In this document: positions 11,696-60,029 of the stretch, one piece after another | Layout of the letters: every line of letters starts with the position of its first letter | How positions within the stretch are numbered: position 1 is the stretch's first letter | From: a virus | Taxonomy: Duplodnaviria > Heunggongvirae > Uroviricota > Caudoviricetes | Length of the DNA: 64,000 bases | Strand: one strand, 5' to 3' | Virus record (IMG/VR): IMGVR_UViG_3300002641_000714 | The notes under the pieces: generated by a model | The model's input: only the letters and a program-made list of their open reading frames with translations | Databases searched by the model: none | Told to the model about the DNA's origin: nothing | Translations under genes and position numbers: made by a program

Positions 11696-11847
11696 ATATC
11701 TTTTAAATTATTTTTTATTATTTAATTATTATAAATCTTTATAAAATAATGTTTCAAATTTTACAGTAAAAATGAGTAAAATTTTTCATTTTGCCCATTT
11801 TCTTTTTAATTAAAAATAAATATATTACAAAATAATACATAGTAAAA

Positions 11848-13035
11848 ATGAATAAAAAGATAATATATGAATCTATAATGAGTTTAGTTGCTAAACAAGT
11901 AAAAAATGTGCTTAATGAGTATAGAACTGCCGCACCTGAACATAATATAGATATAACAGATCTTAAACAATTTTTAAAAATGACTATACAGGAATGGATT
12001 TATAAAAAATTTACATCTATTCCAAATTTAACAAATAGATTTTATAGTTTTACATATGAACCTTATGGCAAATTGACTCTTTATATTGGTTCGGTATATT
12101 CAAATCAACCTATAAAACTAACAATTTCTCCTTAGCTTGGTTATTATAATATTAGAGAAGATTTGTAGAAAATTCAAGAATATATTAAAAAACATAAAGA
12201 ATTTAAAATTATATCTTCTAAAATTCAAACATTATAGCAAATACAAGTTGAATATAATTTTAAAAAGGATGATGATTTACAACTTGCACTGGCAGATGCC
12301 GAAAGAAAATTTGATATGGAAGTTGATGCAACTGATACTGATGAATATGCGCCAACAGTAAGAGACTGGATGAAAATGATTGATTATAAAAATAGACATT
12401 CAAATCCAGAAAGAGTTGCAAATTCATGTAAAGATAATAATAAAATAGTTGCCAGATATATTATTGCAAATACATTAGGATGGAAAGAAGCAGTTAAAGC
12501 ATTTAAAGATAGAATATATGATTTGAATATATTAAATGATGCACAGCTTGAAGCATATAGAAGAAAATATGCAACATATAATATACCTGAAGATATAAAA
12601 GAATTAATAGTTGATCTTCAAGAATATGATGAAAAGGGTGGTTTTGGAGAAACAGAACATTCTGAAATATTTCCTGAAAATCTTAAAAAATATATACATT
12701 AGAATAATAATATTAATTCTTATAAAATTGAATTAATTGATGGGGCTCCAGTTAAAGAACATAGAACACAAAGACATAGAATTGATGCACATCATTATGA
12801 TTATCATTCAGATACAGTTCCTCAAGGAACTATTGATCAGGCTAAAGTAACTTTTAAGCTTTTTGATAATTCTGAAGTAGAATTATATTATGTATATAGA
12901 AAAAAGAATGGAAATTATGTTGGACGTTTTTATAAAAGCAAAATTATATTATATGATTGGGATGAATATAGACGGTTATTTAATGCAACATCTGCTGTTC
13001 ATACATTAAAATGGTGTTTTGATGAAGAAGATTAA
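11848..13035 (+). CDS. Leader-family-2 protein (395 aa) with 4 in-frame TAG codons
   Basis: N-terminal MNKKIIYESIMSLVAKQVKNVLNE leader. The track ORFs 11848..12135 and 12316..12702 share one frame and are joined through TAGs at 12133, 12166, 12235 and 12700. Ends TAA at 13033-13035. The late-type motif aaaaataaatatatta is upstream (11812-11828). Confidence 0.6.
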
Positions 13036-13043
13036 AAAACAAA

Positions 13044-13065
13044 GGTTGGAATTAATTTTCCAACC
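13044..13065. terminator. Bidirectional terminator hairpin
   Basis: ggttggaa / ttccaacc 8-bp stem with T/A runs on both sides. It lies between the plus gene ending at 13035 and the minus gene ending at 13071. Confidence 0.6.
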
Positions 13066-13070
13066 TTTTC

Positions 13071-36632: not shown

Positions 36633-38552
36633 TTAAAGTCCTACGCAGTTTACATAGAATGTAATATATTGTGTTTCAGGATAGAAACCTGCATCTACAA
36701 GAGCGTAACGAGATTTAATCATAAGTTTTGGAGCCATTGTACCTTCAGCGATAATACGTACAACTTCAGCCATTACATATGGGCAGAAGTGAACACCTGG
36801 TTCATCTTTACCACCTTTACGACCAACTAATACACGAGTATCATTAGCTTTCATCAATGGATCAACGTAAACAGTTAAACCGCAAACAGTACCGATTGGG
36901 TAAAGTTGACCAGCAGTTTGTTTAACAGTATTCTCAATTGGTGAGAAGCTATAGTGTGCATCAGATTGTAACAATGTAGCAACACGGATATTAGTTACAA
37001 CGAATGTAGCAGCACCGTAACGACCACGTTGTTGGATCCAGTTAGAAGCAGCTAAGATGTTTGTGAAGATTCTCTTGATAAGAGTGTCACGGTTCTCGAA
37101 GTTAGCACCTTCAATAACACCCATTGGAAGTACTGGTATGCTAACCATTCTTTGAGAAGCATAACGTTGTTCTTGTTCAAGATATTCACCTTCTGGAATT
37201 GCATATGTAGCCCAGTCAAGATTACTAGGATTTTCTGCATCGAATTTTCTGAAGTTTAAGTTTAAGCATGCGCCAAGACCTTCAACTTCTACCATACGAG
37301 CGTGGTTTTTCCAACCAAGAGCAAACAAACGAGATGTGATGTGACGGTTGATAGTTTGAGAAAGTTCGTTTACACCAGCATTCTCAACAATCTTTAATAC
37401 ATCAATACCCCATTGTTTTTGGAGGTCAGTAACTTGTTCTTGAGTTACAGCACAAGCAACTTGGATAGTACCAACTTGGATGTTCTTTGTGAAGAGTTGT
37501 AATGAGATTTGACGAGCAGGAGTCATTTCACCTGTTGCACGGCTCATTGGTTCAAAAAGAACAGTACCATCTTGATATGTACCAGCCCATGCATCTTCAT
37601 CATGGTCACCAGCACCAGCAAAACCAAGAAGTTGATCCTCTAACATAGAGATTAATTTAGCACCTCTAACTGTAAGAGTAATTGCAGGAGTTTCACTTAC
37701 AAGTTCAACATCCTTTAAGAATGTTTCACCAAGAGATTGGTCGCCATCAACAACTTTGAACATTGGATCACCATCAATACGGCTCCAACCAATAAATTCA
37801 ACTGTAAGATGTTTATCAGCATCCTCAAATCTTACACCAGCTTTTAAACCAGCTTGTTCAAGCTCATATTTGTATTTAACAACTGGATCTGAACCTTGTG
37901 GAACAAGAACAGCTTTAAATGCATGTGGAAGTCCATAAAGACGGAAAGCAGCTGCGCCATTAATTGGTTTTTCTTCATTTGGCCAATTCTCTGGGAATGC
38001 TTTTGTAGAAGAATCAACAGCCATACGACGTTTGTTATAAACATGTGGATTAGCGCTGAATCTATCATATGCAGGAGTTGCACCATATGGTTGTTTGCTA
38101 CCGCTATATACATAGTCCATATAAGGAAGAACACCACTAGGACCTGCAAGAGGAGTAGTATTTACAAGTTCAAAACCAATAGTTTTAGCAGCAACCTTCA
38201 TTGCTAATGGAAGAAGTGCAGGGAATTTGTCACCTGAACCAAGAATTTTATCATCAGCCTATTGTGCGCCGGTCATTGCAGCCATTTTAGGAGCAACTAC
38301 ATTACCAACACCAAGAGTATTGTAAAGGTTGTTATATGGAGCATATGCACCACCGAACTCTGAGAATGCGTTAGCACCCATTTCAGGAGCAGATTCATTT
38401 AAGGATTTAGCTGTGTTGTGAGCAAGTTGACTCATCCAAGCAAGCTTTTCTGGATCCTTAACACCAGTTGTACGAGTAATCATTGGAGCCCAAGCTTCAT
38501 TGATCATTTGCTCTGCATTTTTAGCAGTAGCTTTTTGATTGTTTACTTTCAT
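36633..38552 (-). CDS. Putative major capsid protein (639 aa, 1 in-frame TAG)
   Basis: The track ORFs 38259..38552 and 36633..38201 share one frame ((38552-36633+1)/3=640) and are joined through the TAG at 38259-38261. The region is visibly more GC-rich with biased codons (ggt, gca, aac, ttc, atc), as expected for a highly expressed structural gene. The Gly/Ala-rich N-terminus is typical of processed capsid proteins. The late-type motif is upstream. The functional call is tentative. Confidence 0.5.
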
Positions 38553-39661: not shown

Positions 39662-40483
39662 ATGAAAAACTATAAACAAATATTAGAAGCAATTAATCGT
39701 GGTATTAAATTTGCATTAGACGATTTTGAAGATCAAGATGATATTCAAGGTTAGGATAATAGTAAAGTTAAGTATAAAGGCGGAATTAAAGACTGGTTAG
39801 ATTTAATGAGTGATGTTGTTGATTTAGGACTACCTTCAGGAACTCTTTGGTGCAAGTATAATTTGGGATGTGAAACTGAATTATTAAATGAAGAAGGTGA
39901 AAATAGTGTAGCTGATTGGTGGCAAGGTGATTATTTTGCCTGGGGTATTAATCAGCATAATGATTTTTTTACATGGGGGTCTTATGATTATTCAGACTGG
40001 GCTATAAAAATGTTGCCTAATTTAAAAACAGAAAATTGGGTTCTTAAATTATTTAAATATTGTTATGAAAAAGATACAGTTGCATCTATATGTGATGAAC
40101 CTGATAATAAAATGAAACTTGATTTGGAAGATGATGCAGCTTATGTAAAAAATAACAAATACTGCATACCGTCTACAGAACAATTTCAAGAATTATTAGA
40201 TAATACAAAACATAAATTTGTTGCAAATTATAATAATATTTCCGGACTAAACGGTATATTATTTGCATCTATCTATAATCAAAATACAATATTTTTTCCG
40301 CTTGCAGGTTATATGAATGAAGAAAATATCAGAAGAAAAAATACACAAGGTTTTTATTGGACATGTGATTTAAGCCCAAAATATCAAACATGCGCAAATT
40401 CATTTAATTTAACAAAGAAAACAGTAGAAGTTGGAAGTTATAGACGTGACCAAGGTTGTTCAATAAGGCCTGTATTAAAATAG
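39662..40483 (+). CDS. Leader-family-1 protein A with a DUF1566-like domain (1 in-frame TAG)
   Basis: ATG at 39662. Leader MKNYKQILEAINRGIKFALDDFEDQDDIQG, then TAG (39752-39754) exactly where paralogs E and F have Gln (QGQ), then DVVDLGLPSGTLWCKYNLG, YFAWG, IPSTEQFQELL and a C-terminal SIRPVLK. Confidence 0.65.
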
Positions 40484-40501
40484 TAAAAAAAACTCTAAAA
40501 T

Positions 40502-41341
40502 ATGAAAAATTATAAACATATATTAGAAGCTATAAATAGAGGAATTAAATTTGCATTAGATGACTTTGATGATAATGAAATTCAAGGTTAGATTAGTAGT
40601 AAAGTTAATCATCAACATGGAACTAAAGAATATCTAGACTTTGTGAATGAAGTTGTTGATTTGGGGCTTCCTTCAGGAACTTTGTGGTGCAAATATAACT
40701 TAGATGTTAATCCTAATCAGTTAACTAAACCTGAAGACTGGTATGGAAAATATTATGCATGGGGCGAATTAGGAGGAAATAAAACTAATAAAGATGGTAT
40801 AATTTATTTTTATTGGTCTAATTATAAATTTGGAAAATATGATTTAACTAAATATTGTAATGATTCAGAACATGGATTAAATGGTTTTACTGATAATTTA
40901 ACAGAACTTCAACTAGAAGATGATGTTGCATATCAAAACAAAAAACTTTATAATTATAAATTCCATATACCAACTAAAGAACAGTGTGAAGAATTATTGA
41001 AATATACTAATAATTATTGGGTTGTTAATTATAATCCTAATAAAACTATTCATAATCCAAAAGATGATGGCGGAATTCAAGGTTTGGATGGTGGAATATT
41101 TGAAGGAAGAAATGGAAATCAATTGTTTATTCCAGCAGCCGGATTCCGATAGGATTTATGTCGCTATCATGTTGGTTTTTATGGTCACTTGTGGTCTTCT
41201 AGTCTTTACTTAAAAGATTGTAGCAATGCTTACTGCTTAAGCATTAATTCAAACATTATCAATATATACAATGAGGAGCATACATATAATTATGGAGAAC
41301 GTATATATGGTTATAGTATTCGTCCAGTATTAAATTTATAA
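40502..41341 (+). CDS. Leader-family-1 protein B with a DUF1566-like domain (2 in-frame TAGs)
   Basis: Leader MKNYKHILEAINRGIKFALDDFDDNEIQG-TAG. The track ORF 40643..41152 is internal. Read-through of the TAG at 41150 gives the conserved C-terminus ...GYSIRPVLNL and a TAA at 41339-41341. Confidence 0.65.
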
Positions 41342-41354
41342 ATTAATTATTTAA

Positions 41355-42554
41355 ATGAAAAACTATAATAAAATATTAGAAGCTGTTAATAGAGGAATTA
41401 AATTTGCATTAGATGACTTTGATGATAATGAACTTCAAGGTCAAGTTAGCGGTAAAATCAATAATAAAAGTAATCTTAAAGATTGGCTTGAGTGGCAAGA
41501 ATGGATTAAAAAAATTGAAGCTAGAAGTTTAAAAACAGTAAAAGATATATAGGAATTAGCAGATTTTTCAAAATCAAGCAGATTTAAATATGAGGTTGGG
41601 AATAACCGTAATTTATTAATATCTTTAATTAATTATATAATTGAAATTGATTCAACTGCTGATTTAAACTGGATTGACGTATCTAAAATAACAGATATGA
41701 CACAATTATTTGATAATAGTAAATTTAATGGTAATATATCTGAATGGGATGTGTCTAATGTTGTAACAATGCGTCAAATGTTTATATTTTCTCATTTTAA
41801 TGGTAATATATCTAATTGGAATGTATCTAATGTTAAAGATATGCATAATATGTTCAGATGCTCTTATTTTAATGGTGATATATCTAATTGGAATGTATCT
41901 AATGTTAAAAATATGTCTGGTATGTTTAAAGATACATTTAATTTTAATAAACCATTAAATAATTGGAATGTTTCTGGTGTTGAAAATATGAGTGAAATGT
42001 TTCACGGATCTAGAAGATTTAATCAACCACTTAATAATTGGAATGTTTCTAATGTTAAAGATATGGCACAAATATTCTGTAATTGTAAATTTAATCAAGA
42101 TATTAATAATTGGGATGTTTCTAATGTGGAAGATATGCGTTGTATGTTTATGCAAAATCAATATTTTAATAAACCGCTTAATAATTGGAATGTTTCTAAT
42201 GTTAAAATGTTTGCAAGTATGTTTTGCGCATCTATATTTAATTAGCCGATTGGAAAATGGAATATGTCTAAAGCAATATCTCTTAGTGGAATGTTTAAGG
42301 GTTCAAGATTTAATTAGAATATTAATAATTGGAATGTTTCTGGTGTAAAATAGATGCATGAAATGTTTTGTAATTCCCGTTTTAATAAACCATTAGATAA
42401 ATGGAATGTTAGCAATGTTTGGGATATGGAATACATGTTTCAATCATCACAATTTAATCAAGATATATCAATGTGGAATATAAATCCTAATGTAAAAACA
42501 ATTTGTATATTTAAAGATGCTGTTATATAGAAAGAATATAAACCAAAAGTATTA
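41355..42554 (+). CDS. Leader-family-1 protein C with about 10 DUF285-like repeats (5 in-frame TAGs)
   Basis: Leader with QGQ (CAA). The track fragments 41355..41552 and 41697..42245 are in the same frame. Repeats have the form FNGNISNWNVSNVKDMHNMF. TAGs fall at repeat positions that are Q in sister repeats (FN-TAG-PIG vs FNQPL). TAA at 42552-42554. Confidence 0.65.
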
Positions 42555-42564
42555 AGAAAATATA

Positions 42565-43501
42565 AATGATAAATTATAAACAAATATTAGAAGCGGTTAA
42601 CAGAGGTATTAAATTTGCTTTAGATGACTTTGAAGATCAAGAAGATATTCAAGGTTAGATTAATAGTAAGGTTAATAATAAAAGTAATATTAAAGAATAT
42701 TTAGAATGGAATAAATGTCTTGATTTATTATTTAAGAATGTTGATACTAATTATTTTAATAAAATGGTTAAATTATCAAAAATAATTGGTATACAATATA
42801 AAGTTAATGATATAGATACATTAAAAAATATTATAAATTGGTCTTGCCAGATATGTCCGAATAATGATGCAAATTTAAATTGGTTAGATGTTTCTGAATT
42901 AACATCAATGTATGGTTTATTTGGAAATGATTATACTAAAAATTTTAATGGTGATATTTCTAAATGGGATGTATCTAATGTTGAAGATATGAATTATATG
43001 TTTTATAAAAGCAATTTTAATGGTAATATTTCTAAATGGGATGTGTCAAAAGTTAAACATATGAATTATATGTTTTCACACTCTATATTTAATGGTGATA
43101 TTTCTAATTGGAATGTATCAAAAGTTGAAACTATGATTGGTATGTTTAAAGAAGTTAGACCATATGATTACCCATTGGATAATTGGGATGTATCTAATGT
43201 TAAAAATATGTCTGACATGTTTAGTGATTCATGGTTTAACCAACCATTAAATAATTGGGATGTATCTGGTGTTGAAAATATGGCACATATGTTTTCTGGC
43301 TCACAATATGATTAGCCATTAGATAAATGGGATGTATCTAATGTTAAAAATATGGATTCAATGTTTTCTGCATCTCATTTCAGACAAAATATTAGTAATT
43401 GGAATATTAGTAAAGACTGTAATACTAATAATATGTGGAGATTAGGCATGTAGTATGATATTAATAAACCGCCAAAAACAAGATTAAGATATAGACGTTA
43501 A
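42565..43501 (+). pseudogene. Leader-family-1 paralog D, frameshifted in its leader, with a DUF285-repeat body
   Basis: From ATG 42565 the sequence MINYKQILEAVN is followed by an extra C (gttaacCagaggt at about 42600) that puts RGIKFALDDFEDQEDIQG-TAG-... and the repeat body (track ORF 42764..43315, read on through a TAG to the TAA at 43499-43501) in the +1 frame. This is a sequencing error, a pseudogene, or expression from the internal start at 42764. Confidence 0.4.
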
Positions 43502-46853: not shown

Positions 46854-48524
46854 TTAGTTAATTGCTTTTGTTATTTCTATTTTTGAAAAACCGTCTTTTG
46901 TTACACTAATGATTTTATTAAAATTATCAAGATATAAATCAGTATGTGAAACAATAAAACAACTTAAATTATTTTCTTGTGCAAAATGTCTCAAGAAATC
47001 AAGAACTAATCCGGATGTTTCATTGTCAAGTGAAGATAAAACTTCATCAATAGATAATATATTAATTGATGGAAATCTTCTCTTCAATAATTTAAATAAA
47101 CTACAAAGAACAATTAAATCCACGCGTGTTTCTTCACCATCTGATAATGATTCTGGCGTCAATTCAACTCCAAGTTCTTTGAGGTGTGGTTCAAATTTAG
47201 TGTCAATTTCCAATTGATATGGGAAATTAACCAAGTCCAGATTATCTTCAATTTCTTTATTCAAGATTGGTAAATAATTTACAATAACTTTTTGTTTAAC
47301 ACCGTCAATAGAATAAACAATTGCTAATGTCTGTAATTCTTTTAATTTTGCAGAATCTTCAGACAGTTGTTTATTAATATCTTCTATTTGTTTTGTTGTA
47401 TTATTGATAATATTATTAATTCCCTGGAACTCTGCATTATTCTTAAGTTGTTCATTCAATGCATTATTCTGTGCAGTTAATTGCTGAATATCAGAATTTA
47501 ATTGATATATTGCAGTATTCAGTTTTCCAATATATTCTGTTATTGCATTATAATCTACATTTGCTTTTTCTAATTGTTTATTAAGTTCTATAGTTATATT
47601 ATCTTTTTCTGCTTTAAGATTTAAAAGTTTAGTTTTCAAATCTTTAACAGAATCTGTTGAGAATGACATTCCGCATGTCGGGCATTTGTCTTGAGAATAC
47701 AAATCAATTTTTTGGTGAATAACTTGAATATTATAATTATTCTCATATTGTTTTTGCTTGATTTCTGTAATGCTTCCTAATGCTTCAGTTTGTTTTTGAG
47801 TATAAGTTGACAATGCATCTGTCAATTTTTTAATATTCTCATTATCTTTTGAAATCTTTTCAGTATTTGTTCTAATAATTTCTTTATTCTCTTCAGTTTG
47901 TGAAGATTGTTGAAGTTTTGATAATTCAATATTTGCATTATTCAAAGTTTGTGTCAATTGGAACAAAGTATTATTATTAGAATTAATCATATTTCCAATT
48001 TCACGGGCGTCTTTTTTAATTTTCTCAAATGCAATATTGACAACTTCAAGATTGAAAACTCTATCAATAATTTCTTTTCGATCTGCTGGAGACATAGTTA
48101 AAAATGATTTGAATTTCTTCATAGAAATAGAAATCATATTAGAAAATGCCTTAATAGGAATATCTGCAATTTCTTTATCAATATAATCTTGTGCAGATGA
48201 AACACCATAAGAATTGATATTAACTCCATCACGGAAAACCTGCAAATCATTAGGAGTGAATGAACGTTCAATAATATATTCATGCCCGCCTTTTTCAATA
48301 ACAGCTTTAACCCAGCCATGTTTATTGATTCGGTTATGAATTGCAGATTTTGTCAATCCTGGAGTTTTTCCAAATAATGCTATACATGGAAGTGAGAGAA
48401 TTGTAGATTTTCCGGAACCTGAAATTCCTTTTAACAAAACTAATTCTCCATCAACAAATTCAACTTTTTGAATTTCTTCTCCAAATGATCTAATATTTTT
48501 CCACTCAATCGATTTAAATTTCAT
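46854..48524 (-). CDS. sbcC: SbcC/Rad50-like recombination ATPase (T4 gp46-like)
   Basis: Walker A LKGISGSGKST, long coiled coil with a zinc-hook CPTCG, ABC signature LSDGE, Walker B LSIDEV. Confidence 0.8.
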   Translation of the reverse strand: MKFKSIEWKNIRSFGEEIQKVEFVDGELVLLKGISGSGKSTILSLPCIALFGKTPGLTKSAIHNRINKHGWVKAVIEKGGHEYIIERSFTPNDLQVFRDGVNINSYGVSSAQDYIDKEIADIPIKAFSNMISISMKKFKSFLTMSPADRKEIIDRVFNLEVVNIAFEKIKKDAREIGNMINSNNNTLFQLTQTLNNANIELSKLQQSSQTEENKEIIRTNTEKISKDNENIKKLTDALSTYTQKQTEALGSITEIKQKQYENNYNIQVIHQKIDLYSQDKCPTCGMSFSTDSVKDLKTKLLNLKAEKDNITIELNKQLEKANVDYNAITEYIGKLNTAIYQLNSDIQQLTAQNNALNEQLKNNAEFQGINNIINNTTKQIEDINKQLSEDSAKLKELQTLAIVYSIDGVKQKVIVNYLPILNKEIEDNLDLVNFPYQLEIDTKFEPHLKELGVELTPESLSDGEETRVDLIVLCSLFKLLKRRFPSINILSIDEVLSSLDNETSGLVLDFLRHFAQENNLSCFIVSHTDLYLDNFNKIISVTKDGFSKIEITKAIN

Positions 48525-48619
48525 GTTCTAATTACAATTTTACTTAATTATTATATATAAAAATAATGAATTGTTTCTTAAATAAATATATTGTATAAAT
48601 AAAAAATATAATTAAATAT

Positions 48620-49123
48620 ATGAAAAGCGTTAGCAAAAAAGCTTTATATGAAAGCATTATGACTTCGGTTGCTAAACAAGTAAAGAAAACATTGAATGAG
48701 AATAATAATGTGAATGATAATGCAGATTAGTTGAAGGAGTTAATTGCAGAGCATGAAAGTAGGCTTAGAGTATTAAAAAGAAAGCTTGCAGTATTAGAAA
48801 GTGAAAAGGAAATAATAGATGCGTTTGCAAAAGGTATTAATGACTGGACTGATTGGCATGATTCACATTATAGCAATTATATTCGTGAAGGTGAAGAAGG
48901 AAAAGAGTTAATAGAAGCCAGTGGTGGAATATGTAATTATATATATGAAACTGGTTGTAAAGATATGTATTCGTTTATTGAAGATTGTTTAGATGATATA
49001 GATATAGATATAGATGATGATGATTTTGAATTTGATGAAGATTTTATAGAGGATTTTATTAAAGAACATGATGAAGAAATTAATGGTGTATTGGCATCAG
49101 ATTATGGATATGTCTTTGAATAA
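48620..49123 (+). CDS. Leader-family-2 protein, acidic (1 in-frame TAG)
   Basis: ATG 48620. Leader MKSVSKKALYESIMTSVAKQVKKTLNE, TAG at 48728, then track ORF 48731..49123 in the same frame. The late-type motif cttaaataaatatattgtataaataaaaaat is upstream. A terminator hairpin lies at about 49164-49192. Confidence 0.6.
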
Positions 49124-49250
49124 TGATTAATTATATAATTTATTAAAAAATATAAAATTAAAGAAATCGGATTTCTTTCCTTTTTATTTCTTATTATTTT
49201 TGAAATTTATCACAATAAATAAATATATTATAAAAAATAATATAATAATT

Positions 49251-49661
49251 ATGAAAAGAGATAACAAAAAAGCTTTATATGAAAGCATTATGACTTCTGT
49301 AGCTAGAGAAGTTAAAAAGACTTTAAATGAAACTGTAGTAGATACAGAAGATAATGAAACTGAGACAATCAATCATTGTTTAGATGAGATTAAACATTGT
49401 TTGTATAATGGCTGTGATTTTACACAATATAACAAGTATATTGATAGTAAAAAATTTTATGTAATAACTGGATGTATATATGATTGTATTTAGCAAGCTA
49501 GCAATATTGCAAAAAATCTTACAACACTCGCTGAAAATTCTGCAGTATATAAATAGAATTTAAATAATAGTATATCTATATCTATGTTAGAAAAATGCAG
49601 CAATCAATTAGAAGATCTTGATAGTCTTATGAGACGGTTAAAACGCGCATTAAATTATTAA
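49251..49661 (+). CDS. Leader-family-2 protein (2 in-frame TAGs)
   Basis: Leader MKRDNKKALYESIMTSVAREVKKTLNE. The TAG at 49491 is read through (second TAG at 49554) to the TAA at 49659-49661. Upstream motif acaataaataaatatattataaaaaataatat. Confidence 0.55.
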
Positions 49662-49790
49662 TATTAAAAAGGCGGATTTTATTAATTTTAATTAATAAAA
49701 GAGAGAATCAAAGAAATTTGGTTCTCTTTTATTTTTGTCTAATTATTTCTTAAATAAATAATAAAAGAAATAAAAGTATATATTATAATT

Positions 49791-50696
49791 ATGCGAAAAA
49801 ATTCTGATTTATATAATAAAATAATGGAGCAAGTTGCAAAAGAAGTTAAACGTTCTTTAAATGAAGTTGACGATATTGCTCCAGTTAAACAAGAAGTTTC
49901 TGGTGAAGTTTATTTAGTTCGCTGCGATGGAATGAATAAGAAAACATTAGATATGTTATCATCTAAATTACCAGCATTTGATAATTATGGTTCCGGTTCT
50001 ATCAGAGTAACATGCAAAACTCATGAAGAAGTTATTAAAGTCATTTCTTTATTGGTTAATTCAAATGTTTTAGATATTGATAATTCTCTTGGACAATCTC
50101 CTAGAATTTCAATTCAAAAAGTTAATAAGAATTCTGTTAATGATTCTGTTAATGAAAATCGTCAAGAGTTATCACGTGATTATATTCAAATGAGCAAAAT
50201 TAAAACACCAAGGCAACGAGTTAAATTTGAAATAATCCAAAAAATTAATAAAGGTGAAATTCCTGCAACTCCTGAAGCAATCCGTGCAGAAATTGATAAA
50301 TCCGGTGAATGGATAGATCGTTCTGAACCAAGAATTCAAATGGATGTTGATCTTATTATGAGAAAAACTACTGATGAAATAATGGAAGGTGATTTTATAA
50401 CAGATTTCATATATTCAAAAGATAATTATGAACCTGGTGAATTTAGTAATGGAATGGAAGCTGCAGAAAATCATGTTAAATGGTTAAAAAAGCATGGGCT
50501 TGGTGTAAGGGTTGAAGAAGGTAGATATTCATTTAAATATTATATTCATTATAGCACTAAAAAACAATTTAATGATTTAGTTCAATGGATGGCATGGCAT
50601 TGTGGATTTACTGATACAATAACAAATCCACCATCAAAAGAAGATAGAAAATATTTTGAAGAAATTGTTAAATCAGGAAAGAAAACTACATGGTAA
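49791..50696 (+). CDS. Leader-family-2 protein (301 aa)
   Basis: Leader variant MRKNSDLYNKIMEQVAKEVKRSLNE. TAA stop and no TAG. Confidence 0.6.
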   Translation: MRKNSDLYNKIMEQVAKEVKRSLNEVDDIAPVKQEVSGEVYLVRCDGMNKKTLDMLSSKLPAFDNYGSGSIRVTCKTHEEVIKVISLLVNSNVLDIDNSLGQSPRISIQKVNKNSVNDSVNENRQELSRDYIQMSKIKTPRQRVKFEIIQKINKGEIPATPEAIRAEIDKSGEWIDRSEPRIQMDVDLIMRKTTDEIMEGDFITDFIYSKDNYEPGEFSNGMEAAENHVKWLKKHGLGVRVEEGRYSFKYYIHYSTKKQFNDLVQWMAWHCGFTDTITNPPSKEDRKYFEEIVKSGKKTTW

Positions 50697-50707
50697 AACA
50701 AATAATA

Positions 50708-50732
50708 AAGGAATCAAATTAAATGATTCCTT
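50708..50732. terminator. Bidirectional terminator hairpin
   Basis: aaggaatca / tgattcctt 9-bp stem between the plus gene (ends 50696) and the minus sbcD (ends 50738). Confidence 0.55.
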
Positions 50733-50737
50733 TATTT

Positions 50738-51859
50738 TTAATCATTTGCAATTTCTGCTTCAGCATCTTTTAAATACTGATCACTTGTTTTTATTAATTG
50801 CAATTTAAATTCTTCACTGACATCTAAATCATTAATAGCTTCATTTATTAGTTCAGATGTTGTTTTTTCTTTATATTCTATATTCTCATCAACATTAACA
50901 CTTAGTGTTTGTCTGCTAATAACGGGTTTGACAAATTTTGCGGTTGTTCCAATTCCTAAATTATAAATATCAAATTTCTTTTTATATTCTGGAATATTTT
51001 CTTCTTTAATGATAATATAATTATAATTGTTGTTTAGAAATTCTTGTCGTTCTCCAATAGACATTTCAACATATTTTTCCATTAATAAACTGTGATATAT
51101 TGGGCTATAATGATTTTCAATAAATTCATGTTTATTAGTTTTAAGATTAAGCAAATATAATCCTTTTTGATTTCCAATATCTTTTTTATCCATATGATAT
51201 GGTGAACCAACATATATACATTTCTTTGTTTCTTGACGTTTATGAATATGTCCTGAATAAACAACCCCATTAAATGCATCTGTATTGACACCTTCAGTAA
51301 TAAGCATTCCATTGTCAAATCGCATTTTTGCTAAATCTGTATGCATAAATGCATATTTGGCTTTATTGTTTTCTATTAAACAATTTGTTTCTTGTGAATG
51401 ATCGCCTAAATATGGAATTGCAATAATTTTAGTATGTTTAGCACCTTCATAATTTATATTCAATATAGTTGGTTCAGTAATAAGATGGACATTATTTATA
51501 TATTGAATCGCACGAAGTGAAGTGTTTCCTGTATTAGTTTTCTTTGCTAAATCATGATTTCCATTTATAATATAAGTTTCTATTTCTTTAGCAATATCTT
51601 CAAATACATCAATTGCTAAATTATAAACATTAATATCAGTGGCTCTGCGATCATTAAAAGTATCCCCAAGGTTCACCAGAACCATTCTTTCACCATCTTT
51701 TAATGAGGTTTTAAGTTCTTTAACCTTTGGAATAAAAAAGTCATAGAAATAGTTTTTCATATTCTCTTGCCACTCTTCTGAATTAACATGAGTGCCAAAA
51801 TGAATATCAGAAATCATTAAAATATGCGATGCTTTAATGTCTATTTGTTTTGTTTCCAT
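50738..51859 (-). CDS. sbcD: SbcD/Mre11-like nuclease (T4 gp47-like calcineurin-fold phosphoesterase)
   Basis: ILMISDIHFG, GDTFND, GNHD and GHIH phosphoesterase motifs. Confidence 0.8.
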   Translation of the reverse strand: METKQIDIKASHILMISDIHFGTHVNSEEWQENMKNYFYDFFIPKVKELKTSLKDGERMVLVNLGDTFNDRRATDINVYNLAIDVFEDIAKEIETYIINGNHDLAKKTNTGNTSLRAIQYINNVHLITEPTILNINYEGAKHTKIIAIPYLGDHSQETNCLIENNKAKYAFMHTDLAKMRFDNGMLITEGVNTDAFNGVVYSGHIHKRQETKKCIYVGSPYHMDKKDIGNQKGLYLLNLKTNKHEFIENHYSPIYHSLLMEKYVEMSIGERQEFLNNNYNYIIIKEENIPEYKKKFDIYNLGIGTTAKFVKPVISRQTLSVNVDENIEYKEKTTSELINEAINDLDVSEEFKLQLIKTSDQYLKDAEAEIAND

Positions 51860-51956
51860 TATTTAATAAAACATTTTTATATTATAAATTATATACAAAA
51901 ATTTGAAATGGTTTAATCTAAATAAATATATTGATAATAAAAAATAATTTAATAAT

Positions 51957-52403
51957 ATGAAAAAGATAGTAAAAAAAGCTTTATATGAAAGCATTATGAC
52001 ATCTGTGGCTAAAGAAGTTAAGAAAGTATTGAATGAATCAGATTCATTAAGTGATTCATTAAATGATATTAAAAAACAACTTATTGAAAATGGTGATGGA
52101 ATATATTTTGTATATAGCGATTATATATCACGTGATGCAGCATACCTTTATGTTGTTAAAAATGGAGAAATTATTCATCAAGAACACCCAAGTTGTTTTA
52201 TGACACTTAATTATTATGGCGATGGTAAGCCATGCGGTATTATTCCTTCATTAAATAAATTAATTCGTGAATATTATGAATTAAATTTATATGTAGCAAA
52301 TAAAGGCTGGTATACATTTCCGCAAAAATGGAGAGAATGTGATTGGACTACAACACTTGAAAAATATGGTATTAATTCTACACTAATAAATATTGATATT
52401 TAA
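51957..52403 (+). CDS. Leader-family-2 protein (148 aa)
   Basis: Leader MKKIVKKALYESIMTSVAKEVKKVLNE. TAA stop. Upstream motif ctaaataaatatattgataataaaaaataat. Two tandem hairpins follow, at about 52413-52437 and 52466-52496. Confidence 0.6.
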   Translation: MKKIVKKALYESIMTSVAKEVKKVLNESDSLSDSLNDIKKQLIENGDGIYFVYSDYISRDAAYLYVVKNGEIIHQEHPSCFMTLNYYGDGKPCGIIPSLNKLIREYYELNLYVANKGWYTFPQKWRECDWTTTLEKYGINSTLINIDI

Positions 52404-52522
52404 TTAAAATAAAAGGAATCATTTAATTTGGTTCCTTTTATTTTAATTTTAGTTTAATTTTAATAAAATAAAAAGAGAACCAAATTTTTTTGATTCTCTT
52501 TTCTTTATTATGTTTTTCAGAA

Positions 52523-55500
52523 TTATTGATCTGATAAACGTTGAAGTGTGAACTTTTGAATAATTTTCTCCATTCCGTGATTCATCCACAAGTTGATTTC
52601 TACAACACATGCATCTGCTTCAATAACATCTGGTGTGTTATTAGTTTCATCACAAATAATTTCATAACGAACTAAAGCACCAGAGATTTGCATTGCAGAA
52701 AGAATTGGAGTAAGTTGTTGAACAATATTTGCACGAACTGCAGGAGTATTGTATTTAAAGTTATATTTCTTAAGAACTTTCTCACATTCAATTTCAGCAG
52801 TGTTAAGATTTTCACGAACATGAAGTTTATTAAAGTCTGACTTCATTGCTTGATAAGCTGTTTGATTACCATAAATCATGATAGAACCTTGATCCTTAAT
52901 AATTGTATTAACACCGAATGGTTCAAGATATTCACGATCTGTTAAGTCTGCTAAGAACTCAAGACCTTTAAGATATCTATTAGATAAGATACCGTTTTGG
53001 TTAGCACAAATTGCATATGGATCATTGATACCATTGAATTTACGATTCAAAACATTTGCTACATCAGCTGCTGGTGGAACTACAATCTCTTTACCATTCT
53101 CTTGGTAAATCAAGTGTGGCCAGAAGCATGCTGTAAACTTAGCACCGTCTTCTTCACTTGGTAAGCTGAAGATAACAGTTGAACCCATTTCAGTATTACC
53201 GCCTTCAGGAATATATTTAGTATTCATTGATGGACGAGCCTCAGCACCTGGAGTATAAGTATCACAGAAATAAGGATTAGAACTTACTGCAAATTGTTTT
53301 GCTGATGGCAAGTTAAGAATTGCAGTACATTTACCTCTTTCTTGTGCAGTAATTGATAACCAGCGTTTACCACCAAGTTCTGAATTAAGACCATATGACA
53401 TTGAGTCAATAATATAACGGTAGTCAACCATTGCAGGATTCATTAAACCGCGTTTGATACCTTCATCATTCAATACTGAATAAACTTTTTCAATACCGTC
53501 TTCGATATTAAGTTGACCATTTGAATCATAGCCTGGACGATGACGTGATGTAATTGTAAGACCCTTCATAGGAATAAATCTTAATGAACCTGAAATTCTA
53601 TCATCAGAAATTGGTAATTGACGAATAATTTCATTATTTTCAATAAGAACAGGAGCAGTACAAGTTACCAAATAGAAACCAAATTTACCGGTTGAGAACT
53701 CTGCATAATTACCATTATAATCATATGATACACCTTGATAAGAAATCTTATTATCAGTTTTATTATATGGAATAAATTGTTTTCTAATTACACGAGCAAG
53801 ACCTGGAATAAGTTGGTATTCTTCTGTTTGTCCAGCTTCATTTTTATATGTAATATTATGTACATAGTCACCAAGTTTAACCTTTGCATCAGACCATTGT
53901 GAAGCATCTGTAATAATAAACATATTCTTAGTATCTGCTGATACAGGAGCAACATCACCCCATAATGTTGGATCACTAAAGTATTTAACATTAGATATTG
54001 TTTCTTGAACACCGTCTTTATCAGCTTCAACATAATTATATGATAAGAAATTAATACCATAGTATTCATCTAATGCCTTATTTTCATCTACTTTATTTTC
54101 ATTTAATACTAGCAAACCATCTTTTTCTTCAGCAGATACAATATATAATTGTTTAGTACTTGGATCTTGTTTAACGCCTACAGTATATGATTCGCAGAAT
54201 GTTGAATTATCTAAAATAAAGAATGCAGAAACATCAACAGTATCATTATCTAATACTTTATCTTTACTAAGTTCAATATCAAAATATAATGTTTTTGTAG
54301 ATAATGTACCAGTATTAGAAACAACATAATAATTGTTATTTAACAAATCAGCTACATTTGCTTTACTGTATATTGAATTATCAAGCATTGTAACATCTTT
54401 AAGGAATTCAGATGCAACAAATTTACCTGGGCGAATTGCATCAACAAAATCATTAATAGATGGATTACTATAAAGTGATACATCAGCAATAGACGGATTA
54501 TCAACCTTTACTAATTCTGTTAATTCAAATGCAGGTGATTTATAAAATTTCTTTCTATCTGAATTATAAACATAGACACTTGCATCAATTGTATCTAAAA
54601 TTGGTGCTTCTATCCATTTTTTATCAACTGGTTCTTTTTTCATAAATGCTTCATGACCAACCATATCAACAATATATTTAGCAACAGATTCGCCACCTGC
54701 AACCTCACCGCTATTGTCAATATCTAATCCCCAGCATCCAGAATCAGGATCACTAGAACCAGTATCTTTACCAGAATAATCATATGTAAGAACATTTGCA
54801 AGATCTTGGTTAAATGACATTAACAAACCTGTTCTTTCAGTAGCAGCATTAACTTTCTTTTCAAGGTTAAGCATATTACCTTGTTTATCAGTAAAATCGG
54901 GAATAATACATCCAGTCCATGAACCAAGAACTGTTACACCTTCAGCACTCATGAATTGATTAATACGATTCTTGATAATACCTTTTTTATCAAAGAAACC
55001 TTTCCATACAGGATCTGTAGAAAGAACCGGATAATTAGACCAGTTACCTTTAACACAAACTACTTGAAGGAAATAATCAGAAATATTATCATATGGACGA
55101 ATCCAGCCAAACGGAATATTTTCACGGCCACCGAACCAAGATTCAGCAGTTACTTCATAACCTGGCATACTAGCTGGTTTGAATACCAAAATAGAAATCT
55201 CTTCTGTTCCAACATTTACAAAGTTAAGTAAGTTACCATTTTCAAATGTATATGAAGTAGGATTTTCTGGAGCATTCAAATTACGAGCAGCTTCGGCAGT
55301 TAACAAATCTTTATCTGGAACCCAGAAACGTGATCTGTTAAATACACTAGCAAACGGAGTTTTTGCTACATATGGAATATTATCACCTTTAACTGTTCCA
55401 TAAATAACTCTATCTATAGAATCTGCCAAATAATCATATTCTCCATATGTATTATCTGAACTATTACATGCAGGGTTAGCCTCACCAGCACTCATTGATA

Positions 55501-55837
55501 ATACTGCAAGGTTAACTTGATCTGGACCGCTATAAGCAGTAGATACATTTAATAAGTTAAGTGCAATAACAGGGCCACCGTTTAATAAGGTTCTTAACAT
55601 TCTATTAAAGTAGCTTCCTTTATGCTCTAATTTTGTATCAATATCACCAAATACTCTTACTCTGTCAGTATCATCCTATAATAAAACAGGACGGTTAAAA
55701 GGCCCTTTATTAGAGAAACCAACTAACATGCGTAAAGAATCAGTTGCTTCATCGATAGCTCTGACGGTGTTATCAACTTCAAGAGTATAAATACCAGCAG
55801 CTTTAAAAGAATTTAAATCAATACTAATTTTACCCAT
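52523..55837 (-). CDS. Contractile tail sheath protein (T4 gp18-like, 1104 aa, 1 in-frame TAG)
   Basis: The C-terminal VRYEIICDETNNTPDVIEADACVVEINLW matches the gp18 C-terminal block YRVVCDTTNNTPSVIDRNEFV. The track ORF starts at 55600, but the frame continues upstream through a TAG (...RPVLL-TAG-DDTDRVRVFG...) to an ATG at 55835-55837 (MGKISIDLNSFKAAGIYTLEVDN). Confidence 0.85.
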
Positions 55838-55972
55838 ATTATTTAAATTTATTATTTTTTATCTTTTTATTTTTATATTTATTTTATATTCAATTAGCAA
55901 AAATATAATTTATATAATAATACAATATTATACTTTTATTATTTATTTTCAGTTGAAAAAAGAAAAAATAAA

Positions 55973-56000
55973 AAGTGATTCAATTATTTTTGAATCACTT
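55973..56000 (-). terminator. Terminator hairpin after the primase gene
   Basis: 11-bp stem aagtgattcaa / ttgaatcactt. It overlaps the primase stop codon. Confidence 0.55.
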
Positions 56001-57162
56001 AAACATTTAATGCATCTAACAAATTATTTGAAAAATATTGGTTCCATATTATTCGTGGATTTAGTTTTATATCTCTAAAATATTTTTTAATATCTGTTAT
56101 ATCCCATTTCTTTTTATTTCCAGATGATATATATGGATTAATTTCCGGAATATTAAATTCTGTCATAAATTTTTTCCATAAGAAAACATTATAGCCTTGT
56201 TTCATTTTGTCCATTGCATGCTCATTACCAGTATCATCTTTATCAAATATATACCAAAATGGGAATTGCATTGCAAAGTTTTTTCCGGCACCGGCAAGTG
56301 CAATACAATTTGGAAGTAAAAATGCATCAAATGGGCCTTCAGTAACAAATATTGGTTTAAAAGATGTATGTGCAAAATCAACATTAAATATATTGAATAT
56401 TAATGAGAGCTTGAGAATAGTTTCCGGAACCGGTGTTTTATCACCAAGCATTGTCTGTCTCATCTTTTCAATAGTCATTGTCAAATATTTAGGTTGGCCT
56501 TGCTTTGGTGTTAAATTTCTAATTTGCATTCCAAGAACTCTATCATCAACCAAATTCAATATAAGAATTTGATTATATTTGTCAGAATATAAAAATCTCT
56601 CATGATTTTGATATTGGCATCTGTTAATTAAATAGTTATATGCAATTGGTGTTGTTACACGCCCAATATCTTGCAAACCTAAAACATCCCTAATGTAATT
56701 TCTGTCTATAGCCCATTTATAAGCTTCCTCTTTATTAATAATGTTAGATGTTATATTATTTGAAAGTTCTTGAGAATTTGCTTCAGGATTAGTATAATTA
56801 TTTGAAATATAATTTATATCTGTCAAAGAAAGATCTGTCCCGAAATGCTTAAAAAACTTTTTTAGAGACATAGATCCACAACTATTAAAACAAGTATAAA
56901 GTCCTGCATGACGGCCTCTAAATGCAATATGCCCACGTTTCTTTCTTGGATCAAATGCAGAATCATGACAAATAGGACAAGCAAAATTAATTCCTGTTGT
57001 CTCCTTTTTAATATATTGTTTTTGACGAGTTTCTGGAAATTCTTTTTGTAGAATTAACTGAACTTTTTCTTGAATACCAGCTTCAAATTGTTCTTCAGTT
57101 ATATTAGCAGCTGTCAAACTTGACGAATCAAAATCTATTTTTAAAAAATTATTCTCTTCCAT
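55999..57162 (-). CDS. DNA primase (zinc-ribbon plus TOPRIM, DnaG/gp61-like)
   Basis: CPICHDS...RGHIAFRGRHAGLYTCFNSCG zinc-binding region. TOPRIM-like VTEGPFDAFLLPNCIALAGAG. Confidence 0.6.
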   Translation of the reverse strand: MEENNFLKIDFDSSSLTAANITEEQFEAGIQEKVQLILQKEFPETRQKQYIKKETTGINFACPICHDSAFDPRKKRGHIAFRGRHAGLYTCFNSCGSMSLKKFFKHFGTDLSLTDINYISNNYTNPEANSQELSNNITSNIINKEEAYKWAIDRNYIRDVLGLQDIGRVTTPIAYNYLINRCQYQNHERFLYSDKYNQILILNLVDDRVLGMQIRNLTPKQGQPKYLTMTIEKMRQTMLGDKTPVPETILKLSLIFNIFNVDFAHTSFKPIFVTEGPFDAFLLPNCIALAGAGKNFAMQFPFWYIFDKDDTGNEHAMDKMKQGYNVFLWKKFMTEFNIPEINPYISSGNKKKWDITDIKKYFRDIKLNPRIIWNQYFSNNLLDALNV

Positions 57163-57209: not shown

Positions 57210-57980
57210 TTACAAATTTATTACTGGACGAATTGGAAGCCCTTTGTAACGAGCGCACTAAGCACAAAAAATTTCAGGTTTTAATTTATTAGTATTAAAA
57301 TTTAATGTCATGCCATATTGCATATTATTAATTTTAGAATTAATAACTGTATTAGTCCAATAATTTCCATTTGTAGGATATTCATTTACATCTTTTTCTC
57401 CACATTTTTTACATGCTGGAAAAAATAATTCATTACCATTTTTCCCTATAAATAACCAGCCATCTAAATAATATACATTTCTATATTTTTCAACTGGTTT
57501 ATTTATTGTATTTTTTATTAATTCATTAAACTATTCAGGTGTTGGTATGCAAAACTTTAAATTACTATTCTAATACGCAGCATCATCTTCAGATAGTAAT
57601 GTATTTAAATTATCTTTATTATTATATTTAGTTAATTCTTTTCCAAATTTATATGTTTCCCATGAATATTCTGGCTTTGTCCCTAATTCTGTTTCACCCC
57701 AAGCAAAGTAATCACCATACCAATCTAAATATGTAGTATAATAAGGATCTTTATTTAAAAACCTCCAATCACACCCAAGATTATATTTACACCAAAGAGT
57801 TCCTGAAGGAAGTCCAAGATCAACTACTTCATTCATTAAATCTAACCATTCTTTAGTTCCACCTTTATACTTAACTTTACTACTAGTTTGACCTTGAATA
57901 TCATCTTGATCTTCAAAATCATCTAAAGCAAACTTAATGCCTCTATTAACAGCTTCTAATATTTTATTATAGTTTTTCAT
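57210..57980 (-). CDS. Leader-family-1 protein E with a DUF1566-like domain (3 in-frame TAGs)
   Basis: The track ORF 57570..57980 (leader with QGQ, DLGLPSGTLWCKYNLG, YFAWGE) ends at a TAG. Read-through gives ...CIPTPEQFNELIKNT... and the family C-terminus GLPIRPVINL, with a TAA at 57210-57212. Confidence 0.6.
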
Positions 57981-59959
57981 ATATTATTAATATCTTCCTT
58001 ATTTACAACAGCTCTTATTTGTAATCCAACACATCTATCAATATCTTTAATTGACGGTTTTACATTTTTGAATATATTTAATTCATATGCCATGTATTCT
58101 TTACCTTTAATATTTTCACATGCCCAATAATAACCGCCATATTTATAGATACTTAATTTATCTTTTTCCATAATATTTGTATATGGCATAAATAATTTTT
58201 CTTTATTAATTTTACTGATAAATGTAATACCGTTTAATCCTGTAATTCCTTGATAATCCTATTCAAATTTTATTTTAGTATTTTTTAATAATTCTTCAAA
58301 TTGTGCTTTTGATGGAATACAAAAATTAAAATTAAAAGATTTAGTTAATTTTTGAACAGCTGCATCATCATCTGGTATAAGCGTATTTAATTTATCAAAT
58401 CTGACATTATATTTAGGATTATTACCATATTTAGTTAATTTATCCCATGCACCGTTTGCATACTTATAAGTTGTCCAATCATATTGTGCTTTTGGTTCCA
58501 ATTCACCCCAAGCATAATAATTACCTATCCAATCTTTAGCATTATCTAATTTATCAATATTAACACCTAAATTATATTTGTGCCATAATGTTCCTGAAGG
58601 CAATCCTAAATCAACAACTTCTTTCTTTATATCTAAATATTCTTTCCAACTACCTTTATAATGGTTTGTTTTACTGCTAGATTGACCTTGAAGTTCTTCA
58701 TCATTATCAAAATCATCTAAAGCAAAACGAACATTATTATAATTAAATGATTCATTTAAATTTACTTTATTTTGATATGGACGTAATGTTACTTGCATTA
58801 TATAACATACTGTTGGAAATAAATTTTTCCATAAATAATTTTTGGGATCTGTTTTCTTTTTAAGATCAAATACGACAGGATCATTATTATTTAAAATAAA
58901 ATTAATATATAATTTCTTATTTTCAGCAAAATTAACTGTAAAATAAAAACCAAAATCAGTTTTTTCTAATCCAGTAATTTCAATAGTATCAACTAATGCA
59001 TCTTTTAATAATAATGTTCTTGTAATATTTTTATAAATTAATTTTTCATATTCTTTATTAAAATAGTCAAGTGCAAGATCAATACGTTTTTCTCTTGGCA
59101 CCGGTAAACGTCCAAGTGAATCTGTTTCTTCTCGGAAATATGTATATGGTATCATTAAAAAATGTAAATTCTAAATATATGTATTATATTCATTAATTTG
59201 TTCATTATATTCATCTATTTCATTTTCCGGATGATTGTTTATTTCTGCATAATTACGATTATCTTGCAAATCATCAACTAATTTTTGATAATGCTACTGT
59301 AATTTATAAAATTCTATATATTTTTTATTACTTTCACCTGTATTATATTTGTCATAACAATCATTTATAAAATCAACTAAATATTGTTCAAGATCCATTT
59401 TTATTTCATAGGTATCTTCTAATAACTTATTTTCAATTCCAATTTTATTATTTTCTTTGCTTTGTAATGAATTAGAATTTAAACTGTATTTTAATTCATA
59501 ATATTTTTTAACAGATTGATAACGTTCTAATAATGTTTTATCATTAGAAGACAAATCCAAACAATCTCTTGATTTAATATTAATTGTTGCCGCATTTTGT
59601 TTAATATATTGTGTAAATGTAGAACGTGTCTGAATTGTATTTTCTAAATATTCTAATAGATATTTAATAAAATTTTTAGGTTCATACATTAAAAATGATT
59701 CAAGATCCTGATACTTCTATGCACCATTTATCATTCCATAAAAATCATGAATATCATTTTGAGTATATTTAGTTTTATTATTTCTTAAATATTGAAGATA
59801 ACTATATATTTTTTTAATAATATTTTCAGATTTACCGCATTTTTCTTTTGGTAAACCATATTTTAAACCTACTTCTAATTTTTCTGATTTAGAAGGAACC
59901 TAATCTTTGATATGTAATAAATCTTGTCTAACTTCAAATTCTGAAATTTTATTTTCCAT
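57977..59959 (-). CDS. Leader-family-1 protein F: long N-terminal extension, internal leader remnant, DUF1566-like domain (about 5 in-frame TAGs)
   Basis: Track fragments 59294..59689, 58259..59155 and 57977..58189 are co-linear in one frame, and the frame stays open further upstream to an ATG at about 59959. Contains ...NVRFALDDFDNDEELQGQSS...VVDLGLPSGTLWHKYNLG...YYAWGE...CIPSKAQFEELL...ITGLNGITF...GLQIRAVV. Its TGA (57977-57979) overlaps the ATG of gene E. My coordinates are within about 1 nt. Confidence 0.5.
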
Positions 59960-60001
59960 AATTTTATATATACATTTCTATTCAATATATTTATTAAAAC
60001 A

Positions 60002-60029
60002 AATGACTCTAGAAAAATCTAGAGTCATT
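60002..60029 (-). terminator. Terminator hairpin after the gp32-like gene
   Basis: Perfect 12-bp stem aatgactctaga / tctagagtcatt with a 4-nt loop. On the minus strand it is followed by ttgtttt and then the late-type motif of gene F. Confidence 0.6.

Follow-up and report, generated by a model that had tools for sequence, protein, structure and literature searches.

The 64,000-nt stretch of viral DNA analysed here (IMG/VR record IMGVR_UViG_3300002641_000714; the whole stretch is called the window) was found to carry five plus-strand genes whose products begin with the same short leader, ending in Leu-Asn-Glu (LNE), and continue into mutually unrelated sequences, here called cargo. Four of these genes stand in and beside a 2.2-kb island between sbcC and sbcD. 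That the genes are built as recombining cassettes is held with high confidence, and the leader is probably, as far as sequence comparison goes, a capsid-targeting propeptide, the functional counterpart of the capsid-targeting sequence (CTS) of bacteriophage T4. A wider proposal, quite possible though short of probable, is that in Lak phages one address tag of ~27 residues places in the capsid a very large, freely recombining repertoire of proteins to be injected along with the DNA; with the same reserve, this repertoire would comprise cargo families by the hundred, most of them small and acidic, together with a conserved sigma-70 factor, a lysozyme and membrane-type proteins.

Lak phages, which are as yet uncultured, rank among the largest phages known and are common in the guts of humans and animals; the function of most of their genes is not known. 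The Prevotella Lak megaphages were the only DNA matches of the window (28% GC) in the phage collection, at 66–70% identity, and on this sequence evidence the window is a relative of them. Lak phages use genetic code 15, with TAG usage mainly in structural-protein regions (PMC6784885). A subset of the window genes has a long open frame only when TAG is translated, for example 3910..5304 (11 TAG), 39662..43501, 57210..60028 and three of the five leader genes. No tRNA was found within the 64-kb window, so that the TAG suppressor is encoded elsewhere. The reference used below, Lak-A1 (MK250015.1), is a complete genome that was pieced together from 12 fetched segments.

The leader and its genes

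A six-frame scan of the window with the pattern [LI]Y(E/N)xIM..VAKxVK..LNE gave exactly five matches, all on the plus strand, in genes starting at 11848, 48620, 49251, 49791 and 51957 and designated g11848 to g51957 accordingly. These are the five genes that an earlier examination of the letters, the sequence-only reading, had grouped by a common leader. Tyr, Ile-Met, Val-Ala, Val-Lys and Leu-Asn-Glu are invariant across them. The LNE is placed at aa 22–24 in g11848, 23–25 in g49791 and 25–27 in g48620, g49251 and g51957, slightly earlier than the aa 27–30 first given, and the leader measures 24–27 residues. The two genes taken for diverged copies, g49791 (DLYNKIMEQVAKEVKRSLNE) and g11848 (IIYESIMSLVAKQVKNVLNE), are indeed diverged members.

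The extents proposed for the genes hold, with the correction that three of them have an open frame only with readthrough of TAG, which fits code 15 of the Lak phages. Four TAG codons, at 12133, 12166, 12235 and 12700 and read as Gln, occur in g11848 (11848..13035, 395 aa, leader 11848–11919), the cargo of which is conserved in relatives. One, at 48728, occurs in g48620 (48620..49123, 167 aa, leader 48620–48700), where the 131 open codons that follow have a chance probability of ~1e-4, and two, at 49491 and 49554, are in g49251 (49251..49661, 136 aa, leader 49251–49331). No TAG is present in g49791 (49791..50696, 301 aa, leader 49791–49865) or g51957 (51957..52403, 148 aa, leader 51957–52037).

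The cargo parts are mutually unrelated, as claimed, every pairwise BLASTP E-value being at least 0.44; the acidic and Cys-rich types described among them correspond to the very acidic cargo of g48620 (29% Asp plus Glu) and to that of g49251, which has six Cys. Searches of the five leader proteins against Pfam and PHROGs gave nothing significant. The AlphaFold2 (AF2) model of g49791 has a mean predicted local distance difference test score (pLDDT) of 70.9, reaching 80–93 in the C-terminal domain, and found no fold match with E<=0.001 in PDB or BFVD. A Sec, Tat or lipoprotein signal peptide was considered and rejected, as KKALYESIMTSVAKEVKKALNE, read by eye with no predictor run, has a charged or polar residue every 2–4 positions.

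The family extends far beyond the window. A profile built from the five leaders and used in a word-indexed search retrieved 127 clusters at 90% identity, all with MK(K/R)DNKKALYESIMTSVAKEVKKxLNE followed by unrelated sequence, and when 1.84 billion representatives of 50%-identity clusters were scanned exhaustively with HMMER, 904 leader proteins were found in public metagenomes at E<=1e-3, 121 of them at E<=1e-10. In nearly all of the 150 matches listed, the leader matched from residue 1 to 27–33. The LNE ending is present in 218 of 229 leaders, the next residue being mostly D, S, N, G, E or Y, and similarity among the proteins stops exactly after it. Leader genes at IMG/VR loci often stand in tandem, two or three together, and the complete Lak-A1 genome has ~10 clear members and several diverged ones, INE being the commoner ending in that genome.

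The median length of the cargo is 134 aa, and a pI below 5 was calculated for 25 of 45 cargo sequences, as against 22% of Lak-A1 proteins (Fisher P=4e-6). Pfam matched no family in 38 cargo sequences, and PADLOC returned only weak MotA/ZorA-like and REase matches, each to single members. Three proteins of Lak-A1 are more telling. The first, encoded at 212646..213662 (minus strand, four TAG), is a sigma-70 factor with the leader (region 2, 47.7 bits; region 3, 28.3 bits); the leader is kept on it in 15 of 15 Lak records, while in other phages its sigma homologues have none and align only from ~aa 55. In the second, at 216330, the leader is combined with a phage lysozyme domain (a borderline match, 22 bits) and with a hydrophobic run taken to be a membrane segment, and the third, at 194934, has a leader variant followed by long hydrophobic segments. 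These three, a sigma factor made late, a cell-wall hydrolase and a membrane protein, would suit proteins that are ejected and become active as the next infection begins.

Putative prohead protease motifs

The leader end had been likened to the (L/I)-x-Glu motif cut by T4-type prohead proteases, and the head genes of this phage group agree with that at the level of sequence. The major capsid protein (MCP) of the window (36633..38552, minus strand, 639 aa, one TAG) belongs to the T4 gp23 family (Pfam Gp23, 121.8 bits) and is 62% identical to the Lak-A1 gene targeted by the published Lak MCP PCR primers. A phmmer search with T4 gp23 missed the Lak MCP, which was located through these primers and then confirmed by Pfam. 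It contains INE at aa 17–19 (38496–38504) and a conserved LNE at aa 51–53 (38394–38402). The N-terminal region reads SQLAHNTAKLNE followed by DAFVMP in the Lak-A1 clade and SQLAHNTAKSLNE followed by SAPEMG in the clade of the window, and the LNE is thus kept in both despite an indel and divergent flanks (AKLNE before DAF, AKSLNE before SAPEM). T4 gp23 is cleaved after LTE at residue 65, which precedes the mature AEIGG N-terminus, and the T4 CTS, MKTYQEFIAE, ends in I-x-E (PMC8442874).

The protease itself was recognized in Lak-A1 at 187878..189632 (Peptidase_S77, 55 bits against a cut-off of 27; T4 gp21 match, 2e-8), and a T4 gp20 query finds the Lak-A1 portal. Searches with the S77 protease gave 222 metagenomic homologues at E<=1e-5, and in IMG/VR only homologues 95–100% identical to that of Lak-A1. 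Nine aligned homologues (34–68% identity to the first) have xLNE at ~aa 16–24, once IFE, and directly after the catalytic domain R(I/V)NE and Y(L/I)NE, each followed by Ser, with further xNE behind. Sites flanking the domain in this way would be the layout expected for autoprocessing.

Similar sites occur inside leader proteins. In the g49791 family (21 sequences, 58–93% identical) an internal NDSVNE (aa 117–122, nt 50139–50156) is invariant; the AF2 model has a leader helix at aa 2–19 and places both LNE and NDSVNE in linkers with pLDDT <50, the latter in a predicted disordered linker between two domains. The leader protein P0197 contains KEVKKSLNE followed by NKF between two parts of the protein. 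The sites in the MCP, in the protease and in internal linkers are three independent observations that would tie [L/I/V]-N-E to the head protease in Lak phages.

Enrichment of the motif in single proteins was also considered and adds little. The best single-protein P for [LI]NE among 570 Lak-A1 genes is ~1e-3. The window gene 43..1914 (plus strand) encodes a very acidic 623-aa protein with four LNE, 0.29 being expected, and its Lak-A1 orthologue (72581..74713) has four [LI]NE; no family match was found for the window protein, which is a candidate scaffold or core protein.

The sbcC–sbcD island

The genes that flank the island, both on the minus strand, were identified as sbcC (46854..48524, gp46-like ATPase; AAA_23, 45.5 bits) and sbcD (50738..51859, gp47-like nuclease; Metallophos, 25.9 bits), in agreement with the names first given to them. 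They are nearly adjacent in three Lak genomes, with gaps of 257 nt in Lak-A1, 258 nt in Lak-C1 and 290 nt in Lak-B8, and the 2.2-kb block between them is therefore an insertion in the clade of the window, as had been suspected. A leader gene convergent with sbcC is present in Lak-B8 with yet another cargo. The block order differs as well, being sbcD-sbcC-primase-sheath in Lak-A1 (91305..100592) and primase-sheath-sbcD-sbcC in the window (46854..57162).

Cassette exchange is seen most directly in L002 and L009, two IMG/VR relatives. Both match the window at 92–93% from inside sbcC to 48699–48702, the last codon of the g48620 leader, and continue past it into unrelated cargo of 111 and 179 aa; homology returns at 49676–49687 (85–91%), at the terminator after g49251. 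One cargo there thus replaces two window genes. Downstream of sbcD, g51957 has an orthologue in L002 and is absent from L009, which has two minus-strand genes in its place. The breaks at the leader end and at the terminator support the exchange that the sequence-only reading had proposed. Promoter and leader together (~150 nt) are 81–88% identical between paralogous copies, and these repeats and the terminators are, to judge from their positions, likely to be the homology arms. A leader copy also occurs at the C-terminus of a 427-aa Lak-A1 protein (217569..218852, plus strand), which ends in KKKRALYESIMKNVSKTIKRKLQLI and may carry a scar of cassette exchange.

Each unit had been described as having its own upstream motif and hairpin. 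The motif AAATAAATATATTG, resembling a late promoter, was found on the plus strand without mismatch at 48580..48593 and 51920..51933 and with one mismatch at 49217..49230 and 11814..11827, the last (AAATAAATATATTA) 34 nt before the ATG of g11848; the distance to the ATG is 34–40 nt in these four genes, and g49791 is preceded by a variant only (AAATAAATAATAAA, 49752..49765). A terminator scan called six sites in 48400–52600 where 0.8 were expected. The hairpins with T-runs that it called are at 49699–49730 (plus strand), where the homology of L002 and L009 restarts, at 50704–50736, common to g49791 and the opposing sbcD, at 52402–52448 (plus strand), after g51957, and at 13041–13068, between g11848 and a convergent minus-strand gene. 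The description is least apt for g48620, which is followed by a weak hairpin, AAAGAAATCGGATTTCTTT and then a T-run (49160..49178, plus strand), that was seen by eye and not called by the scan. One terminator, GAGAATCAAA(G/A)AAATTTGGTTCTC, occurs twice in the window, at 49703–49726 (plus strand) and 52475–52498 (minus strand), the two differing at a single position. Another type of hairpin, beginning with AAAGGAATCA, is seen at 50704–50736 and 52402–52448.

TAG is present in 30 of 45 leader genes, and many related loci also have the common motif upstream of their leader genes. Late expression is indicated both by the TAG codons and by this motif, which is TAAATA-rich, in line with the late units proposed, and that each leader gene is an autonomous late unit is supported by these sequence features.

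The acquisition had been called moron-style. This is apt in that autonomous units, each with a promoter-like motif and a terminator, were inserted between genes that are adjacent in relatives; the foreign origin that the term implies does not stand. The island genes have 26–29% GC and sbcC and sbcD 27%, homologues of g49791 occur only in Lak-like contigs, and the units form a single leader-defined family. An origin as host-derived morons was rejected on the first two grounds, which argue for cargo shuffled within the lineage and not for capture from a host. The situation is similar to that of the PeSL cassettes of T4-like phages, in which variable genes are bracketed by promoter/stem-loop repeats and replacements break there (PMC4122927). 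Replacement breakpoints between close relatives of the window also fall at repeated promoter/stem-loop motifs, but here the 5' homology arm reaches into the coding leader, and the genes look late whereas those of PeSL cassettes are early.

Readings of the leader

In the mechanism that we propose, a unit of promoter-like motif, leader, cargo and hairpin would be transcribed late, and the leader helix would bind the scaffolding core or the inner prohead, so that the cargo would be enclosed as the gp23-type shell assembles. The gp21-type (S77) prohead protease would then cut after the Glu of [L/I/V]-N-E and release the leader, and the mature cargo, left behind in the head, would be ejected together with the DNA. 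The repeated ~150-nt promoter-leader segments on the 5' side and the hairpins on the 3' side would serve as homology arms through which cargo is exchanged, added and lost, and recombination of this kind would have built the 2.2-kb island. Core binding, cleavage, presence in the virion and ejection are steps that we infer from sequence.

The closest known system is that of T4, which combines its CTS with diverse internal head proteins (PMC3012670). The likeness of the Lak leader to this system, in which the CTS of IPI, IPII, IPIII and Alt is removed by gp21, lies in a short N-terminal propeptide that is the sole common part of unrelated proteins and ends in (L/I)-x-Glu, in a gp23-family shell with a gp21-family (S77) protease, and in late genes placed in variable regions. 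The Lak leader differs in its length (24–27 residues against 10), in having two L-x-E motifs (LYE and LNE), in its almost constant Asn at P2, and in a cargo that is mostly acidic instead of basic and includes a sigma factor. Its scale, with at least about 10–15 genes in Lak-A1 and at least 904 cargo clusters, is far above that of the T4 CTS. In the giant phages phiKZ and SPN3US, ejection and inner-body proteins carry propeptides that are processed by a gp21-like protease and are thought to act in a CTS-like manner (PMC5694885). The likeness is that of giant myoviruses whose prohead protease is related to that of T4, in which many head proteins are processed and paralogues with the same N-terminus occur; the propeptides, however, mostly exceed 100 residues, are cleaved at (S/A/G)-x-E and belong to paralogue families, in contrast to the single short Lak leader. 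Three Lak papers (PMC8346664, PMC6784885 and PMC11165621) make no mention of N-termini or of a protease, and the leader family appears to be undescribed there.

If the reading as a capsid tag is correct, the injected arsenal of an uncultured phage group can be read from sequence alone. For hundreds of orphan genes, the tag would give both a location and a timing, and it would point to candidates for injected counter-defence and host takeover, among them the tagged sigma factor, which would be delivered by the virion and seize the RNA polymerase of the host as soon as infection starts; to our knowledge, virion delivery of such a sigma factor has not been described. Leader cassettes would also explain hypervariable islands inside conserved modules such as sbcCD, and the leader might serve as a protein-packaging tool.

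Several observations weigh against capsid targeting. Homology of the leader to the T4 CTS cannot be demonstrated, the resemblance being limited to Y-x-x-hydrophobic-hydrophobic, which is too short for statistics, and the acidic cargo is unlike the basic internal proteins of T4. In the MCP, 58 residues separate the LNE from the first block alignable with gp23, where T4 has 28. Neither the prohead protease of this genome nor any scaffold is encoded within the window, and the S77 data come from Lak-A1 and from metagenomic homologues. Across the Lak-A1 proteome, [LI]NE occurs 209 times where 144 would be expected, a modest excess (1.45-fold), and genes with TAG show no excess of it at their N-termini (23/220 against 28/350, P=0.37). 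The helical hydrophobic moment of the leader, 0.96, is not significant, being equalled in 15% of shuffles. Finally, some cargo on this leader is Fib_succ_major-like (L004, L006, P0145, P0146 and P0250), a call made by eye from motifs such as WxKYNLG...YYAWGE...IRPV and with no Pfam match, and such cargo resembles a surface adhesin more than a protein of the head interior.

This last point bears on the alternative that survives best, unlikely as it is, in which the leader is an uncleaved docking helix that would attach many different proteins at a single site on the exterior of the virion, on a decoration protein, collar or fibre hub, and serves a polymorphic display. A first leader family, MKNYKQILEAINRGIKFALDDF, is present in the window at 39662..43501 (plus strand) and 57210..57980 (minus strand), and carries DUF285/BspA-type repeats (320 bits) or Fib_succ_major-like domains. 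An alignment of the two leader families runs for 22 columns with no gap (hhalign E 7.5e-4, probability 25%) and sets LDD of the first opposite LNE of the second, and it is this alignment and the cargo type common to both that keep external display alive. Against it, neither a sigma factor nor a lysozyme with a membrane-like segment would have any sensible place on the particle surface; xNE also marks the N-terminal region of the MCP and both ends of the protease domain, internal xNE sites fall in predicted disordered linkers, and conservation ends exactly at the Glu.

Three further observations concern the first leader. Its start, MKNYKQILEA, is closer to the T4 CTS than that of the second and has I-L-E at aa 7–9. 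A Lak-A1 protein at 10433 (minus strand), MSLLYNKLIESIKTAIYESLFDD, looks intermediate between the two leaders. In the 683-aa product of window gene 57977..60028 (minus strand) a first-family leader, SFNYNNVRFALDDFD, stands internally right after LNE (KVNLNE), and the protein may be a processed fusion.

Also unlikely, and ranked behind display, is an address or regulatory tag acting inside the cell, through recruitment to a replication or assembly compartment of the phage, binding to a common chaperone or hub, a degron or the site of another protease. It would suit a cargo that is diverse, mostly acidic and includes a transcription factor, the more so because location in the virion is itself drawn from sequence. 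The late features of the leader genes (TAG codons and the common upstream motif), the coincidence of LNE with conserved sites in the head protease and MCP, and the T4 precedent for the same architecture (PMC3012670) speak for the head instead.

The remaining alternatives turn on whether the leader is selected as a peptide. For the 19-codon leader core, compared in 34 distinct DNA copies from the window and 22 IMG/VR loci, pS is 0.61 and pN 0.18 (pN/pS 0.30), and synonymous sites are near saturation. Four codons are used for Val and five for Leu, Ser positions swap between the AGC and TCA families, and TAG stands where other copies have Gln. Folding z-scores of the five leader segments against shuffles are 0.15, -1.22, -0.43, 0.04 and 0.61, and an Rfam scan of the window gave no match. 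Because of this pN/pS, the switches between codon families, the lack of a fold signal and the Rfam result, the leader is judged, on the codon evidence, to be selected as a peptide and not as RNA.

It is accordingly improbable that the leader genes are an ordinary paralogous family in which gene conversion or recombination has kept an N-terminus with no function of its own. The high identity of the ~150-nt promoter-leader segments would suit such a history, as would the identical run of 29–30 nt shared by three leaders (AAAAAAGCTTTATATGAAAGCATTATGAC); near-identity over ~45 nt had been claimed for these three, and of this the 29–30 nt stand while codons 3–5 differ. Diverged copies nevertheless keep their amino acids through synonymous and Ser-family changes, the leader is retained in Lak-A1, whose conserved proteins are only 47–62% identical to those of the window, and the cargo parts are unrelated sequences and not diverged paralogues. 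An action of the leader as nucleic acid, whether RNA structure, translational enhancer or recombination site, had been named as what would overturn the peptide reading and is very improbable, since the near-identity of the first 45 nt in three copies is outweighed by the pN/pS ratio, by the fold and Rfam results, which together with that ratio led an RNA element to be rejected, and by the fact that no base-pair covariation was seen.

Some observations on neighbouring genes were made in passing. The MCP gene, 10 kb from the island, has 39.5% GC, whereas the window as a whole has 28%. A papain-like cysteine protease (Peptidase_C1, 49.7 bits) is encoded at 220294..220923 of Lak-A1 (minus strand, four TAG), adjacent to the portal gene. 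The sbcC gene of the window (46854..48524) has no in-frame TAG as against 19 in its Lak-A1 and Lak-C1 orthologues (compared at Lak-A1 92681..94357 and L001 5972..7648), and the set of TAG-recoded genes therefore differs among Lak clades.

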